A stretch of 64,000 bases of DNA from Roseibacillus sp. GTDB taxonomy: Bacteria > Verrucomicrobiota > Verrucomicrobiia > Verrucomicrobiales > Akkermansiaceae. Below, piece by piece: positions 27,001-33,000 of the stretch (the first letter of the stretch is position 1; every line of letters starts with the position of its first letter). Made by a program: the position numbers. The stretch is from NCBI GenBank assembly GCA_965242925.1, contig CBDEUM010000034.1:1-64000 (forward strand). The letters run 5' to 3'.

Positions 27001-30000
27001 ATTTACCTATCACCTGTCCCATTTTCAAGCCGCCACCCGCGAGCAAAAGGGGAGTCAGGTCGCCGTGATGATCCGTGCCGGCGTCCCGGTTCTTCTTGAT
27101 CGGCGAACGTCCCATCTCGCCTGAGACGACCAATAGAATCTGGTCGCTCAGGCCGCGCGCCTCGACGTCATCGAGAAAGGCGGCCACCGCGTGATCCATC
27201 TGGGCTCCCAAAGTTTGCATGCCAACCAAGGTGCCGGGATTGTTGGCTCCCCCTCCGTGAAAGTCCCAACTGGAATCGACCACGGTGACGAATCCGCAAC
27301 CCGCCTCGCATAGACGCCGGGCCAGCAGCATCTCCTTGCCCAGTAAATTTGTCCACCGCGCCTGGTCCACGAGCTTCTTCTTTCCCTTGAACAGAAAGTG
27401 CTTGCCTCCTTCGTGGTAATCCGCCATCCGGAATAGATGGCTGGTGTCGTATCGCGCAATGGTTTTTGGATCCTCTTTCGATAAATCAAACGCATCCGAT
27501 ACGCCTCGCAGCAACAGGTCGTAGGTTTGGCGTTGCATCTGACTCATGCTCTTCGCTTCTCCGGCTCGATCCATCCGACGATTTAATGCATCAAGTTGCC
27601 CCAATAGCTGGAATCGATCGACAAAACGACCGTGAGGGATCTTTAAATCGAAGTTGCCCAACTGGTCCGGACTGCCGTCGAGAACAAACCCCTTACAGGA
27701 ACCGGCAAGTTGTCCCGCCCCCGCAACTTGCTGCTTTATTCGGGGAAGTCCGAACGTTGATGTCGGTGACCCCAGCTGGAGATTGGGCTCTACGGCCTCC
27801 GGCACGATAACGGTATTCATCGGCATGCCCGTCCTGGGATGAAAGGCGCCTGAGCCATGGGCGCACATTGCGGCCATCGCCGCACCCGATGGATGCCGAC
27901 CGGTCAGAATGGGGAGATGATTGTGACTGCCATCATTGGTGGCGAAGGATCGCACCACGGCCAAGCGATCGGCCCTTTGGGCCAGCTGAGGCAAGGTGCC
28001 GCCGAACAAGACACCCGGAAGTTTGGTTCTAATTTCGCCCGTGCAACTGCGGTTGTTGCTGGCGACGTCGACCTTAGGATCGAAGGTTTCAATCTGTGGC
28101 GGGCCACCTTGCAAAAACAAAAAGACAACGGATTTGTTTCTAAATACATTCCGGTCCATTGCGGCCTGAGAGCGGGTCGTCAGCAACTCCGGCAATGCCA
28201 AGCCGCCCAGACTTCCGATACGAAGAAAATCACGGCGGCCGATCAAGGAGGGCCCCCGGGCAAACCGATCGTCTGTAAATGTCAGCATTTTCCCGGTCCT
28301 TTATAGCCCATAAAGTATTCTGCTGGAATCAGCCATCACATAATGGCTCGTTGTAAATTCGGATTTTTTTCCGGCACTTGGGTGGCGGGTCGTCTGGGAC
28401 AGGCTTATCGGCCGTGGGGGTCGGCAAGAGGGCGCACTCGATGTGCAACTCGCAGTTCCCTGGGTGGGGGTGAGAAAGGCGCGCCGGGAATGCCAGCCCT
28501 CTTGTCAAAGTGAGGCCGCTACCGTGTGGGCGTTGCGGGACAGATTCACCAAGAGCGCAGAGCGATGTTGGTTCATATCCAACCGCAGAATACACTTTAA
28601 GGCATACAAGATTAGCACGTTAGGGGGGATTCCCTTTGAGGGCAAGGGGTGGCGCAGGCAATTTCCCCACGGGCCGTTCCCTGCGCCTCCTGCGTCTGGT
28701 GGGCGGTTCAGGATTGGGGGTTATGAAGAGCATTGGTCTGCTCCTTGTTGCGCTACTCGGTGCTTTTTTGTGAGAGAAAATCTGATGATAACCGAAGCAG
28801 GGGGGTGAACCCGTAAGCATTTACGTAAGCCATGTCGACGCCGCGCCGTTGATTATCGACAAGGGCTGGAAACTTGCCTAGCAAAGCTAGGCTGATCCAG
28901 ATTCCTGTTTTGTATGAGGTCTAAATTGATGAAACGATTGTCCTGCCTGAATGCCGTTAGTTTTACTGTGATTAGCATGGCGGCATCGGGCCCGGTATTA
29001 GCCCAGCGCGGGGCCGAGGTGCCCGCGGATGCCAACTACCGGTTCGCACAGGGCCAGAGGTTGGTGGCAGGGGGCAAGCCAATCGACGTCACGACTGGGC
29101 ACGCTTCGCCTTATGTTTACGACTTTAACGGCGACGGCAAGAGAGACCTGCTTGTCGGGGAGTTTGGTTCCGGGGTCTTTCGGGGCGAAACGACCACCGA
29201 CAATTCAGTGGTCAATGCCCGGCTGCGAATCTACCTGAACACGGGCACCAACGACTTGCCCCGGTATGGCAGTTTCAAGTATCTGCAGGGCGGTGGAGAA
29301 AACGCGTCAGTCCCCAGCACGTGATGCAGCACTTTCTGTCCACAGTTTGTGGACTACGACGCGGACGGGATAGATGACGTCATCACTGGTTCGATCTATG
29401 AAGACGTTTATCTCTTTCGGGGACTTGGGGACGGGAAGTTTGCGAAAGCGGAGCTCCTGAAAGACAAGGACGGAAAACCTCTTGAGGGAGGCTACTGTTG
29501 CACGACCGAGTTGCTTGACATGGATTCCGACGGGGATCTGGATCTGGTATGCGCCACACGCATCGGCAAAGTAACGTGGCGCGAAAATGTTGGCACGAGA
29601 AGTTCACCGAAATTTGATTCGGAAGCGCAATCACTTCCCATGGAGAAAGGCGTTGCATCAATTGAAGGTTTCAACGCAACCTATGCCGACTGGGACGGCG
29701 ATGGACGAAGGGACCTGGTGGTCGGGTCTGGACGTGGTCACGTCGTCTGGCACCGCAATGTTGGGGCAGACGACAAACCGAAGTTCTCGTCGGGGCGAAA
29801 GTTGTTGAGCGATTCCGGATTCCAGGAGATCAGGGAGGGCGATGTCCCCGCAACACACGGAGGACGAGCCAAAGTTCATCTTGTCGATTACGACAACGAT
29901 GGCTTGCTCGACGTCCTGCTGGGCGATTTCACATCCTGCACTTACAACACGCGCCCGCCGTTGACGGACGAAGAAATGGAAGAAAAAGCGGCCCTGGAAA

Positions 30001-33000
30001 AAGAGCTCAAGGAGACGGGGGACAAGACGTATTACGCAGAAGTAAATCGCCTCAATAAATTGTACTGGGCGGCAAAAAAGGCCGGGAACCCTGAGGAAGT
30101 CAAAAGGATCAAGGCGATGCAGGCAGAACAGCGACGTCCGCTCGATGAACTGTACAGGAAACTCAGGCCGTTCAGGACAACCGGCTCCAAGGCTCACGGG
30201 TGGGTGTGGTTCTATCGCCAATTACCGAAGAGCAATAGAGGTCTCGCGGTGGCCGTGCTTTCCGTCGAACCGGCAAGTCGAACACCAGAGGTGACGCTTC
30301 GGGCGTTGACCAGCCACACGACTGTCGCGCCCGGGCAGGAGTTCCAGGTGGCGATCAGTTTTCAGGTGGCCGACGGCTGGCACATCTATGGAGCGGAAAA
30401 GGGTGACTCTTACCTGCCCACCAGAATCGAATGGACCCTGCCCGCTGGCACAACGCTCAAGAATGTTCAATGGCCAGAGCCCTTGGCCATTGAGAATGGC
30501 GATGATGTTCAGCCAACTTATGAAGGAACTGCCATAGTGCTGGCAACGATTCTCGTTTCCAGGGATGCCGGGCCTGACGCAAAGCTCAAACTGGCGGCGG
30601 ATGTAAGCTGGCAGGTTTGCACGGAATCGATTTGCAAATCCGGTCGTGCGAAGATCAAGACTGGTGTCGTTGTGACCAAATCCGTCAGGCGCGAATCGGC
30701 ATCAACCGCTACCGAGTAGCTGCCAAGGTCTGCAATCCTTGCCTCTCCTCGGATTGAGGATATCTGACTCCGTGGTTAGCATCATGTTGTCAGGGTGCAG
30801 GAAACAGGGTGGGGCGGGCTACTGCACACTGAAACGGAAGAAGGCGGTGTTATCGAACGAACACCGCAACGTCATCAATGTACCATCCCGAGGCGTCGGA
30901 ATCCGCGAAGTCGTCGCTCACAAACCCGAACTCCAGCGCGACCAGCCGACCGAGCGCGGCCGCGGGTAACTCCGCCGAGAACTCCCGCCAGCCGCCGGGG
31001 GAGAATCCGGTGATATTAACCTGCACCACTCCCAATTCCGTCACCGTTCCCGCGGATAGCGCGGGGCCATCGAGGACACGCACCGTGCCGCGGTCGAGGT
31101 TGTCGAAATCATCCATGTCCACCCACTGTTGGAAGACGAGAGTCGCCACGGATGCGCCGTTGAGATTAATGTCACCCGGGGTGCGCTGCCAGATGCTGGA
31201 GTTGAGCCCGTAGTTGGCCGACAGGTTGGTGCCCACGCAGTTGGGGGCACTTGGCAGCGGGATCCCGGGGGGAACCGGACCGACCGAGGAAGGCGTCCCC
31301 AGTTCCCAAGCCGTATTCATGAGGGTGTCCCCGGCACCGAAGCCGGTGGTCCACCCGGCGGGGAGGGCTCCAGCCGCGGTGCTGTCGAAGTTCTCCGTGA
31401 AGACCGTGACCGGGGGCGTGGGAAACTCCTCCACGACGAAGAAACGCTCCGGGTCCCCGGGAAGGGTAAATTCCAGGGCATTCTCCGGTGGAGTGGCTTC
31501 GATGTTCTCGTTGCCGTCGAAGATGGGCCAAGCGGCAGAAGCTGCGGAGGAGGGATCCACAACACTCCGCAAATTGTAGAGCATCCCGTCCTGGCTTTCC
31601 CAGCCAATGGTAAGAGTTTGGGTGCCCGCATCGAGGGAGAGGTCCAACTGGGGTGGCTGCGGCAGGGAGAAGACAGTCAGGGGAGTGCGCCTCCGGGCGG
31701 CAAGGTTGAGGATTTGGTCGGCGCTCAAAACCACGTTGAAGAATGCAAGGTCATCCAGGGAGCCGTCCAATCCAAGGACTGCTGAACCGTTGATATTACC
31801 GATCCATAAATCCTGGGTAGGGTCGAGAATGCCGGAAACCGGAGTCGGATCGTGCAGGGAATCGAGTTGGCCATCGATGTAGATGATGAGTCCCGCGGGA
31901 TCGTCGCGGTCCACTGTGACCGCTAAATGGTGCCAAGTGCCATCCGGCGGAAGGATTGTATCGGAGTCGGCCAACAGGAAGTCTGCGCCGGGTTCGTCCA
32001 TGCGGAGCCGGAACCTGTTTCCAATAAAGAGCGCCTGGAATCCCTGGCTGGTGCCGCCCAGGGCGTCGAAGATGCCGTCGACCTCATTGGAGTCCGCCGC
32101 GCTGTCGACACGACGGGCCCAGAAGCTGAAAGAAAAGTCTTCGAGACCAAATGCCGGAAAGGAGTCTTGCGAGATTGTCACGACCTCCTCCGGGACCGCA
32201 CCGCTCACGCCGATCGAGATGGCCTCACCAGTTGGACTGCCTGGATCCACCTCCACATTGGTGCCGCCCACCCCGTTCGCTCCGTTTCCGGACCGGTCAT
32301 CATAACGGTTGGGAGATTCAAAATCCCAGTAGGCGGCCAACTCTGCACGCGCCGGTAAAAGGATACCTGCAGCAGCCATGATGGCCGCTATCGTCCGAAC
32401 TATCATTGTATGGACAGGGGCGAGAGAGTGTTGTGTGAGACGGGCCGATGTTATTGCCGCCTTCGGCGAAGTGCGAGTAATCCGGTGCCCACCAAAGCGA
32501 GCAGGGCACCCGAAGGTTCCGGGATTACGCTGCCTTCGACGGTGAGTCCATTGATGTGGAAGTTGCCCGTGGAACCCTGACCGGCATTACGCGGGGTGAA
32601 GCGGATCTCCACGCTGCTGGCGCCCATGATCGACTCGTTGAATTCGCGCAGGATGGGCACCCCGGCCCCGGTACCCTGCGTCTGCACCGCGTCGTAGAGT
32701 TCGAACGGACCGGAATCGACGCTGACGTCGAACGCGATACCATTTGGTGCGCCGCCACCATTGCGCCACAGGTTGATGGAAAGAGTGTCGATATTCAGGG
32801 TGTTTCCAGCATTTGCAGCGAGGGTAAAGAAGATGTAGTGGTCATTGATTCCATCGCCACCACGGTCGAAGTTTTTGACGTTGAGTTCACCTGCAACCGC
32901 GGTGCCCACACCGCCCGGAGCGACGGCTGTGGAATAGGTTAGCCCGACATGATCCAAGTCGGAGGAAGAGAGACCGGCTGCCGCGTTGGCATTGGTTGAG

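Follow-up and report, generated by a model that had tools for sequence, protein, structure and literature searches.

An annotation-split gene of Roseibacillus sp. almost certainly encodes a selenoprotein with selenocysteine next to cysteine in a predicted exported five-bladed propeller

Animal thioredoxin reductase ends in a C-terminal Gly-Cys-Sec-Gly motif, in which the neighbouring Cys and selenocysteine (Sec) can form an eight-membered selenenylsulfide ring that is reduced by the dithiol of another domain. In DsbD and ScsB, DsbD_N-type domains act as electron donors. Propellers typically bind ligands at their upper faces, and five-bladed propeller enzymes hold their active site in a central funnel. 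FG-GAP repeat proteins with an ASPIC/UnbV domain have been listed as selenoprotein gene candidates in the planctomycetes P1 and P2; these genes are split at an in-frame TGA, and a SECIS element was predicted in three of the four (Kim et al. 2016, PMC4807772, Table S9). The gene analysed here resembles those candidates in that its family likewise includes Planctomycetes FG-GAP repeat proteins split at an in-frame TGA, but the residue aligned with Sec is Cys, whereas the closest non-Sec relative of the Kim et al. candidates aligns Gly. It also differs in domain content, as no UnbV_ASPIC match was found in this protein, all 29 matches in the genome lying outside the gene.

The gene lies within a stretch of 64,000 nt that was analysed as a whole (the window). 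Open reading frames 28914..29324 and 29349..30719 share a frame, with only the TGA at 29322-29324 between them. The initial annotation had joined the two genes (g02618 and g02619) into one 596-aa protein with an in-frame TGA in the motif SVPST-[TGA]-C-STFC and Pfam matches to FG-GAP_3 and DsbD_N, and all of this was reproduced. The motif reads SVPST-U-C-STFC-PQFVDYDADG, and the joined protein matches FG-GAP_3 (9.5e-23), DsbD_N (1.6e-13, residues 471-580) and FG-GAP (3.4e-10). Translation from the ATG at 28929 gives 596 aa with Sec at position 132, and from an alternative upstream ATG at 28914 it gives 601 aa with Sec at position 137. A GAGG (28916-28919) stands 9 nt upstream of the ATG at 28929, and four relatives of 88% identity (L020-L023) start at the equivalent position. 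Residue numbers in this text count from 28914; subtracting five gives the numbering from 28929.

28929..30719, forward strand: whole selenoprotein gene, 596 codons plus stop, in one frame with a single TGA
28929..29003, forward strand: predicted Sec-type signal peptide, MKRLSCLNAVSFTVISMAASGPVLA, followed by QRG (translation read by eye)

All relatives have a comparable basic and hydrophobic start, and AF2 pLDDT is below 50 at residues 1-33. The sequence suggests that the protein is exported via the Sec translocon, in line with the initial view of a single exported selenoprotein that has Sec and Cys side by side and carries a SECIS of its own.

Sec decoding was examined by comparing about 100 Sec forms with more than 30 Cys forms, which lifts two earlier caveats, that only two sequences had been seen and that no Cys-form homologue had been considered.

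29322..29324, forward strand: TGA read as selenocysteine, U137 (U132 from the ATG at 28929), from the aligned Cys and conservation of the TGA
29325..29327, forward strand: TGC, Cys138, vicinal partner of Sec; Cys follows the TGA in all Sec forms seen

U137-C138 stands opposite an invariant CC in 20/20 full-length homologues (table-11). Ten further homologues have Cys at the TGA-aligned position, within CC in nine and CR in one. Altogether residue 138 is Cys in 29 of the 30 Cys-form proteins and Arg in the other (P0258), so the vicinal pair is not strictly required. TGA-Cys is retained in 67/76 metagenome loci and in 29/30 Planctomycetota loci, the remaining one being CC, and the TGA is also present in a Verrucomicrobiota relative (G062). 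Distant metagenome loci were retrieved by the peptide pattern FCPQFVDY, so the amino-acid conservation of that stretch is partly ascertainment; the synonymous-site signal is unaffected. The STFC cysteine (C142) does not belong to a conserved centre: other Sec forms carry C, S, G, V, T or Y at this site, and most codons there end in GU, which the stem of the hairpin described below demands.

29338..29354, forward strand: predicted SECIS hairpin GUCCAC-AGUUU-GUGGAC within the coding sequence, from synonymous-site freezing, covariation and bSECIS fit

The 17-nt hairpin was found again at its reported distance of 13 nt downstream of the TGA and has an MFE of -8.4 kcal/mol in isolation. As in fdhF-type SECIS elements, a small stem-loop comes after the UGA within the reading frame, but the element here is very short, nearly invariant in sequence over two phyla, and dictates residue +5, whose codon, mostly ending in GU, encodes C, S or G. 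It agrees with the consensus bSECIS model (PMC13188914) in all four constraints, sharing the 5-nt apical loop that has G in second and U in third place; its stem is 6 bp (7 including an A-U closing pair) and its UGA-to-loop distance is 19 nt. Arm codons are almost fixed in 57 distinct relatives (TGT 57/57, CCA 56/57, CAG 57/57, GTG 57/57, GAC 55/57), the three exceptions giving G.U pairs. The loop codon is unconstrained (TTT 39, TTC 18), and invariant residues flanking the hairpin use three to four codons each. On these alignments synonymous change is lacking in the arms but has gone on in the loop and flanks, which marks the hairpin as being under nucleotide-level selection. Across 68 sequences, 399/408 core cells are paired and three stem pairs have changed on both sides (A-U to G-C in four sequences, G-C to A-U in one), a covariation reached by 0/500 shuffles. 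The hairpin is absent from both Cys-form DNAs (L196 and L214). Single-sequence folding of an 81-nt context did not single out the hairpin, the MFE favouring another helix (z = -1.58; 13/200 shuffles fold as well). In a genome-wide scan of 7,037 TGA codons with at least 60 open codons on either side, only six had a perfect hairpin of 6 bp and an RGKUN loop 9-19 nt past the TGA, so the hairpin is beyond chance. This gene is one of the six; two others are thioredoxin-like W-U-G-x-C genes with AGUU loops, the likeness remarked on earlier, and another is a G-U-QMN site, presumably MiaB-like.

The genome encodes a tRNA-Sec (59 bits; called tRNA-SeC with anticodon tca by ARAGORN), SelB (287.5 bits) and a Sec-type SelD with its own in-frame TGA (366.6 bits), while no match to SelA (TIGR00474 or PF03841) was found in the 89.9%-complete assembly. 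The lack of a SelA match would suit a TGA that is a true stop, leaving two genes or a recent pseudogene with an incidental hairpin, as would the splitting of the gene by gene callers and the separate database entries of the 456-aa C-terminal piece and its relatives. This is very improbable, however, given that the same TGA codon occurs in about a hundred diverged relatives with both flanking frames conserved, that uninterrupted forms have Cys at its position, and that the hairpin is selected at the nucleotide level; moreover, the N-terminal piece would comprise a signal peptide and one blade, and the second piece has no signal peptide. Reading of the TGA as Trp, Gly or Cys, through a variant code or near-cognate suppression, would leave the same open frame in DNA but has nothing specific in its favour. 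We consider it extremely improbable, as TGA terminates other frames when all six are listed for the region, homologues align Cys there rather than Trp or Gly, tRNA-Sec, SelB and SelD are present, and the SECIS-type hairpin is conserved and lost in Cys forms. Judged by comparative sequence evidence, the locus is a real selenoprotein gene with high confidence.

29013..30233, forward strand: predicted propeller domain, residues 34-440, from the AF2 model and five DxDxDG motifs
29100..29102, forward strand: His63, invariant in A1, A2, A4 and A5, 7 residues ahead of the first Asp of the blade-1 loop
29496..29501, forward strand: second vicinal Cys pair, C195-C196, clade-specific, at the equivalent position in blade 3
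29865..29867, forward strand: Arg318, invariant in A1, A2, A4 and A5, 7 residues ahead of the first Asp of the blade-5 loop
29967..30173, forward strand: long helical hairpin, residues 352-420, inserted ahead of the closing strand
30180..30215, forward strand: closing propeller strand, HGWVWFYRQ region, residues 423-434 (strand E423-434 in the model)

The AF2 model of the propeller part (pLDDT 92.1, pTM 0.87) predicts an FG-GAP-type propeller with five blades and a DxDxDG calcium-loop motif in every one of them (D70, D147, D202, D259 and D325). Its top structural matches are GH62, GH43, GH159 and GH32 enzymes (Z up to 17.4, rmsd 3.7 A, 260 residues aligned), which we take to be five-bladed propellers. 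These and glutaminyl cyclase (3mbr) have the same overall fold (Z 13.8-17.4, rmsd 3.6-4.3 A, 223-267 residues aligned), but identity is just 6-13%, the shared fold shows no function, and the blades of this protein resemble FG-GAP repeats and carry DxDxDG loops. The seven-bladed FG-GAP propellers of integrin alpha, Psathyrella lectin, CRTAC1 and TcB share the repeat type and calcium-loop motifs, with Foldseek and profile matches at E 1e-4 to 5e-8, but TM-scores are only 0.29-0.37 against the five blades here, and none of the four is a selenoprotein. Placed by repeat register only, His63, U137, C138 and R318 may form a pocket. The C195-C196 pair, in the stretch GGYCCTTELLD, occurs in this protein and relatives of 64-88% identity, its position being S or T in other clades. 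The helical insertion (DSSP helices 352-368, 371-389 and 393-420) is missing from L174 and L202, and relatives of 655-662 aa carry a PG_binding_1 insert within the same region. G429, V431 and W432 are invariant in the closing strand, just past which propeller-only relatives terminate.

30324..30653, forward strand: DsbD_N-like domain (DsbD alpha / ScsB alpha type), residues 471-580, Pfam PF11412
30618..30635, forward strand: Cys569-x4-Cys574 (WQVC-TESI-C), putative redox pair, from invariance and alignment with DsbD

The C-terminal domain matches PF11412 at 51.1 bits (cut-off 25; 54.7 bits at the same place in the genome search), and its profile matches PDB 6c29_A (E 3.2e-07), presumably the alpha domain of ScsB from a copper-stress system. 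Cys569 and Cys574 are invariant in 34 DsbD_N-bearing members and fall in register with the two paired Cys of the alpha domain in the genome's own full DsbD (711 aa, with alpha, TM and thioredoxin-like domains), upholding the view of a DsbD_N-like domain whose redox Cys pair is kept. The likeness to the DsbD/ScsB alpha domain thus covers both the Pfam match and the register of the Cys pair, but the domain here is C-terminal on a soluble propeller, whereas theirs is N-terminal on a membrane electron transporter, and the Cys spacing varies, being x4 here and x6 in other clades. The family had been thought rare; this is contradicted by matches in 80/401 sampled Planctomycetota genomes, nearly all with the TGA. 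Propeller-only forms make up 23/27 rebuilt Planctomycetota and Verrucomicrobiota genome-locus frames and about 14 metagenome forms. At the core of the family is an FG-GAP-type propeller, presumably exported, with the DsbD_N-like domain fused to it in some members only; since most members examined are propeller-only, the fusion cannot serve as the mechanism throughout the family. In one clade a PrxQ/BCP peroxiredoxin domain is added, and its peroxidatic position holds a second Sec. Neither the window nor 16 loci showed a conserved neighbour of the CcdA, DsbD or thioredoxin kind.

The explanation we prefer as a whole, with some reservation, is an exported Sec-Cys redox selenoprotein. The ribosome would read the UGA as Sec, the hairpin recruiting SelB carrying Sec-tRNA(Sec), and export through the Sec translocon would yield a mature calcium-loop FG-GAP-type beta-propeller, five-bladed in the model. 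Sec137-Cys138 would lie in the loop leading to the inner strand of blade 2. If integrin-type propellers are a guide, this would put it close to the central axis on the face that binds ligands, with His63 and Arg318, both invariant in the family, around it; in this clade C195-C196 would join them. The pair is probably a redox-catalytic centre, cycling between selenolate/thiol and a vicinal selenenylsulfide and thereby reducing an oxidised cell-envelope substrate, most likely a peroxide, sulfoxide or disulfide. As in animal thioredoxin reductase, neighbouring Cys and Sec could form a selenenylsulfide, but the order here is Sec-Cys rather than Cys-Sec, a propeller loop inside the chain carries the pair in place of a flexible C-terminal tail, and the protein is extracytoplasmic and without a flavin domain. 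It is plausible, though tentative, that in this clade the fused DsbD_N-like domain (Cys569/Cys574) re-reduces the Sec-Cys centre with electrons that the membrane DsbD of this genome would supply through its thioredoxin-like gamma domain.

The selenoprotein may instead hold a soft metal or metalloid (Hg, Cu, As or Se species) at its Sec-Cys pair, with the DsbD_N-like domain merely keeping the site reduced. Vicinal CU/UC motifs in the 2026 selenoprotein inventory are mostly found in metal-related families (CopZ-like GxUC and CU forms, MerB-like SaoL, HgcA and MbdU), and the solved structure nearest to the fused domain, PDB 6c29, bears the title 'putative metal resistance protein'. We regard a metal site as unlikely, since no metal-resistance genes lie nearby, and catalysis accounts better for the Sec-type peroxiredoxin fusion in one clade and for the invariant His and Arg next to the pair. 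The occurrence of propeller-only forms without a built-in reductant, and the ligand-binding character of propeller upper faces, would also fit a U-C pair acting as an envelope thiol oxidase or disulfide isomerase, or a propeller that only recognises a substrate reduced by the DsbD_N-like domain. However, DsbD_N-type domains donate electrons in known systems, and no part of the propeller is as well conserved as the Sec site, which is kept where DsbD_N is missing and so is not accessory to that domain; we judge these roles distinctly improbable.

Whichever role the pair has, the annotation-split gene almost certainly encodes one selenoprotein with Sec next to Cys, in a predicted exported five-bladed propeller. 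The family is absent from the 2026 inventory of 119 selenoprotein families, from NCBIfam and from the papers searched, which agrees with the initial annotation that it is not among described selenoproteins; it represents a large bacterial selenoprotein family missing from selenoprotein catalogues.

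Two open reading frames on the forward strand share one frame and are split by a single TGA, with a hairpin close behind it. The gene, its hairpin and its flanks are as follows.

28914..29324 and 29349..30719, forward strand: open reading frames in one common frame, split by the single TGA at 29322-29324
29338-29354, forward strand: hairpin GTCCAC-AGTTT-GTGGAC, starting 13 nt after the TGA
26828-28288, opposite strand: DUF1501 gene, upstream flank
30850-32406, opposite strand: Laminin_G_3 gene, downstream flank

Read through the TGA, the product has 601 aa if translation starts at ATG 28914 and 596 aa if it starts at ATG 28929. 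The second start is the likelier, because GAGG lies 9 nt upstream of it and the 88%-identical relatives (loci L020-L023) begin there; residue numbers here count from ATG 28914. The joined protein carries the site motif SVPST-U137-C138-STFC-PQFVDYDADG and matches Pfam FG-GAP_3 (E 9.5e-23; 81 bits, cut-off 26.9), FG-GAP (E 3.4e-10; 40 bits, cut-off 22.1) and DsbD_N (E 1.6e-13; residues 471-580). The initial annotation had described an FG-GAP/DsbD-N fusion with a Sec-Cys pair, and every item of it was reproduced: one frame, a single TGA, 596 aa from 28929, the Pfam domains and a hairpin 13 nt on.

The gene is solitary between its two opposite-strand neighbours, and an analysis of neighbours at 15 metagenome loci, at locus L095 and in the window found no conserved partner gene. 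Promoter and terminator scans gave sites no more numerous than in shuffles. Upstream, 20035-28288 holds a gene cluster of Planctomycetes/Verrucomicrobia type, with two DUF1501 genes, one HXXSHH (DUF1552) gene and one PSD/PSCyt3 gene (DUF1592, DUF1588, DUF1585, DUF1595, DUF1587). Two proteins are encoded at 32451-39177: one of 230 aa that ends in a PEP-CTERM-like tail PEPSGALLALVGTGLLALRRRRQ and, behind it, one of 1,782 aa that combines CotH with chitobiase C-terminal domains and five lamin-tail domains.

U137-C138 aligns with an invariant Cys-Cys in 20 of 20 full-length uninterrupted homologs at 30-48% identity. Ten further full-length representatives all have the Sec-aligned Cys, nine as Cys-Cys and one as Cys-Arg. 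P0258 is the Cys form with Cys-Arg, and the second Cys is therefore not universal. A TGA followed by a Cys codon stands at the site in 67 of the 76 metagenome loci fetched, the distant ones having been retrieved through the peptide pattern FCPQFVDY, so that amino-acid conservation there is partly ascertained and codon choice is not; the nine loci without a counted TGA-Cys are L024 (no pattern match), L087 and L088 (short) and L089-L094 (only 25-33% identical). The 30 Planctomycetota loci returned comprise 29 with TGA-Cys and one with Cys-Cys, and 90 of the 94 matches listed from the Planctomycetota search hold at least one in-frame TGA. The protein database contains the 456-aa C-terminal piece of the gene together with dozens of similar pieces.

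The genome encodes tRNA-Sec (59 bits; called by ARAGORN as tRNA-SeC, anticodon tca), SelB (287.5 bits, on the same contig as the selenoprotein gene) and a SelD that carries its own in-frame TGA. A selA gene was not found with TIGR00474 or PF03841 in this genome (assembly 89.87% complete, 42 contigs); either it lies in the part that the assembly lacks or the enzyme is a divergent one. From these comparisons we take the gene to be a real selenoprotein gene that has been mis-split. Set beside the Cys and TGA codons found at one aligned position, a true stop at the TGA is very improbable, and its read-through as something other than Sec is harder still to credit.

The hairpin was examined in the relatives. 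In 57 distinct sequences the stem-arm codons are fixed or nearly so (TGT 57/57, CCA 56/57, CAG 57/57, GTG 57/57, GAC 55/57), the three exceptions being G.U pairs; the Phe codon of the loop drifts (TTT 39, TTC 18), and residues just as invariant beyond the hairpin are each encoded by three or four different codons. In an alignment of 68 distinct sequences the 6-bp core is paired in 399 of 408 cells; A-U at pair 5 has become G-C in four of them, L194 being one, G-C at pair 1 has become A-U in one, and a seventh pair (G-C, A-U, G-U or U-A) is present in 15. The observed covariation was matched by none of 500 shuffles, and L196 and L214, the only two Cys-form genes with readable DNA, are without such a hairpin. 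This pattern indicates selection on the hairpin at the RNA level.

The consensus bSECIS model, as given in a 2026 review (PMC13188914), places a loop of 3-9 nt with G within its first two positions on a stem of 4-16 bp, with 16-37 nt from UGA to loop and a minimum free energy of -7.5 kcal/mol or lower. All four constraints of that model hold here (loop AGUUU, stem 6-7 bp, 19 nt from UGA to loop, -8.4 kcal/mol). Wide-context folding of the single sequence does not favour the hairpin (z -1.58), and an Rfam scan of 29200-29500 returned no SECIS family, its sole match being a chance one to ctRNA (15.9 bits, gathering score 45). The cysteine of STFC is best read as a by-product of the RNA signal, because the residue at +5 varies and its codon mostly ends in GU as the stem needs. 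As part of a U-C-x3-C centre C142 was ruled out, because other Sec forms have C, S, G, V, T or Y at that position.

Of the 7,037 TGA codons in the genome that are flanked on either side by an open frame, only 6 have a hairpin of this kind behind them. The initial annotation had likened the hairpin to AGUU-loop hairpins in thioredoxin-like selenoprotein genes of this genome, and two of the six matches bear this out: they lie outside the window on the forward strand (contig and position C14:613464 and C22:23539), in thioredoxin-like genes with SASW-U-G-x-C, and have the hairpins CUCCAG-AGUUA-CUGGAG and CUCCAC-AGUUG-GUGGAG, respectively, 19 nt downstream of their TGAs. They are probably the genes that were meant. 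Also outside the window, C13:118163 (reverse strand) has an in-frame TGA in VKTYG-U-QMNERDSE, with the hairpin CCGAGC-AGGUU-GCUCGG 19 nt downstream. This TGA presumably takes the place of the first Cys in the N-terminal motif of a MiaB-type methylthiotransferase. Sec at that position is absent from the 2026 selenoprotein inventory (PMC13188914, Table 1).

The family had been called rare, which is wrong, as 80 of the 401 sampled Planctomycetota genomes match (E <= 1e-25). Within the Verrucomicrobiota 8 of 401 genomes match at E <= 1e-20, the window's genome included, so the family is scarce in its own phylum; matches to the propeller region there, besides the own genome, come from G062 (one TGA) and G197 (no TGA) only. 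A HMMER search with a propeller profile gave 7,550 proteins at E <= 1e-30, a figure that is no family size since giant multi-repeat FG-GAP proteins dominate the top; 10 single-stretch full-length matches and two fragments were used from it. The contig scan with alignment A1 used generic FG-GAP patterns and met a family member at 1 of 75 loci (L095). The protein atlas placed the natural Cys form P0032 only in a generic FG-GAP plus DsbD_N cluster. The propeller is the core of the family, and the Sec forms occur in four layouts.

Layouts of the Sec forms
409-441 aa: propeller only; commonest layout among the frames rebuilt
561-604 aa: propeller and DsbD_N-like domain; layout of the window gene
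655-662 aa: propeller and DsbD_N-like domain, with a PG_binding_1 insert within the helical linker
767 aa: propeller, DsbD_N, then PrxQ/BCP

A second TGA occupies the peroxidatic Cys position (FYPKASTPG-U-T) of the 767-aa layout. Three-module relatives, with the propeller (U144), the DsbD_N-like domain and PrxQ/BCP, are found at L050 2357-4660 and L053 2357-4660 and also at L048 and L052; in relatives of the L050/L053 type the second TGA has its own 7-bp hairpin and the third TGA is the true stop. The database ORF P0182 runs from just past one Sec site through the end of its propeller and into a second propeller up to '...AAVPPS', and since it spans the stretch between two Sec sites, it points to tandem double propellers with two Sec codons.

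The predicted model has a pLDDT of 87.3 and a pTM of 0.71 at full length, and 92.1 and 0.87 for the propeller alone. An all-against-all structural search placed GH62, GH43, GH159 and GH32 first (Z up to 17.4, rmsd 3.7 A, 260 aligned residues), all of which we take to be five-bladed propellers. The protein is read as five-bladed because its best structural matches are, consistent with the five DxDxDG motifs in its sequence. Integrin alpha is a seven-bladed propeller, whereas five blades, not seven, were found in the predicted model. Seven-bladed FG-GAP proteins (integrins, fungal lectins, CRTAC1, TcB) were found by sequence-aware searches with a TM of only 0.29-0.37, and Foldseek with the full-length model gave only generic propeller-plus-Ig matches (TM <= 0.28). 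Ahead of the closing strand HGWVW there is a long helical hairpin, residues 352-420, that is missing in the relatives L174 and L202.

Beyond the calcium loops, the residues invariant in the family are His63, U137, C138, Pro143, Trp260 and Arg318. His63 and Arg318 stand 7 residues ahead of the first Asp of their own blade's loop, U137 10 and C138 9. In integrin-type propellers the equivalent positions are on the upper, ligand-binding face around the axis, and we infer a central pocket around the invariant residues. A second Cys-Cys, C195-C196 (GGYCCTTELLD; 29496-29501), is located at the matching place of blade 3. It is limited to the window's clade (relatives of 64-88% identity), with Ser or Thr in other clades, and could serve the U-C pair as a relay partner.

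The DsbD_N-like domain matches PF11412 with 51.1 bits in the protein (cut-off 25) and 54.7 bits in the genome search. All 34 members carrying the domain keep its C569 and C574, which are aligned with the Cys pair in the alpha domain of the genome's own DsbD, a 711-aa protein with alpha, membrane and thioredoxin-like parts. The domain profile matches PDB 6c29_A (E 3.2e-07), which we take to be the ScsB alpha domain; the profile was needed, a single-sequence PDB search with this part giving nothing below E 0.16. Because the Cys pair of the domain is conserved and aligned with that of DsbD alpha, and a full DsbD is encoded, a relay would be possible in this organism; for this clade it is plausible that electrons pass from DsbD gamma through the fused domain to the U-C pair. 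For the propeller-only forms, the neighbour analysis of metagenome loci and the window showed no conserved neighbour that would supply reductant.

In the mechanism proposed here the Sec-Cys centre would be redox-active, cycling via a vicinal selenenylsulfide; it would reduce an oxidised envelope substrate and, in this clade, would be recharged via the fused DsbD_N-like domain. At its fullest, the proposal is that Sec-Cys with the invariant His and Arg may constitute a new kind of selenoenzyme active site, lying in the funnel of the five-bladed calcium propeller. The protein would then be a reductase or peroxidase outside the cytoplasm that is linked to the DsbD electron pathway, present in a fifth of Planctomycetota species, overlooked since gene callers split every copy, and encoded with a SECIS that also fixes a neighbouring residue. 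Taken whole, this is a tentative proposal, possible and somewhat short of probable. That the Sec-Cys pair binds a metal is unlikely, and points in its favour are that the closest solved domain, PDB 6c29, is titled a metal-resistance protein and that vicinal CU/UC motifs go with metals in the 2026 inventory, where 'UC' occurs only in the CopZ-like GxUC family (PMC13188914). The same site might also belong to an oxidase or isomerase, or the propeller might serve substrate recognition, and we consider this more doubtful again. A redox-active Sec-Cys centre that reduces an envelope substrate is the reading favoured here.

A Sec-Cys centre of this kind had been held not to be among described selenoproteins, and the sources covered agree. 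Table 1 of the 2026 inventory (PMC13188914) has no FG-GAP, VCBS or propeller family among its 119 prokaryotic selenoprotein families, and NCBIfam release 20 has no model, giving one weak sub-threshold match (FusH, 18.5 bits). FG-GAP, VCBS and propeller are absent from the main texts of PMC12013277, PMC13326102, PMC2398784, PMC9312934 and PMC5029168. Literature searches returned nothing relevant on FG-GAP or VCBS selenoproteins, and their beta-propeller/SECIS matches were all on animals. The closest proteins in print are the ASPIC/UnbV FG-GAP Sec candidates in Table S9 of Kim et al. 2016 (PMC4807772), a table that also has a candidate given only as 'hypothetical', with a Cys homolog. Those candidates belong to another FG-GAP family; the window protein is without UnbV_ASPIC (PF07593, no match at E up to 0.01). 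The genome itself has 29 UnbV_ASPIC matches (for example C34:85140-85340), none of them in the selenoprotein gene, which represent a large ASPIC/CRTAC1-like FG-GAP family.

As judged from sequence comparison, the family of propellers with a Sec-Cys pair, predicted to be exported, is widespread and uncatalogued. Bacterial selenoproteins so far are mostly thioredoxin-fold or metal-cofactor enzymes, and a widespread exported propeller family with Sec-Cys would extend them by a new fold and a new arrangement of the active site. It would be a selenoprotein that is common in marine Planctomycetota and Verrucomicrobiota and that present catalogues and gene callers have missed; every Sec form examined is annotated as two genes, and merging is called for. 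Estimates of selenium use in both phyla would rise with the family counted. The hairpin is a clear case, found in nature, of protein sequence being constrained by an RNA signal, and the Sec-Cys propellers point to an unexplored envelope redox chemistry that may be fed by DsbD-type domains.
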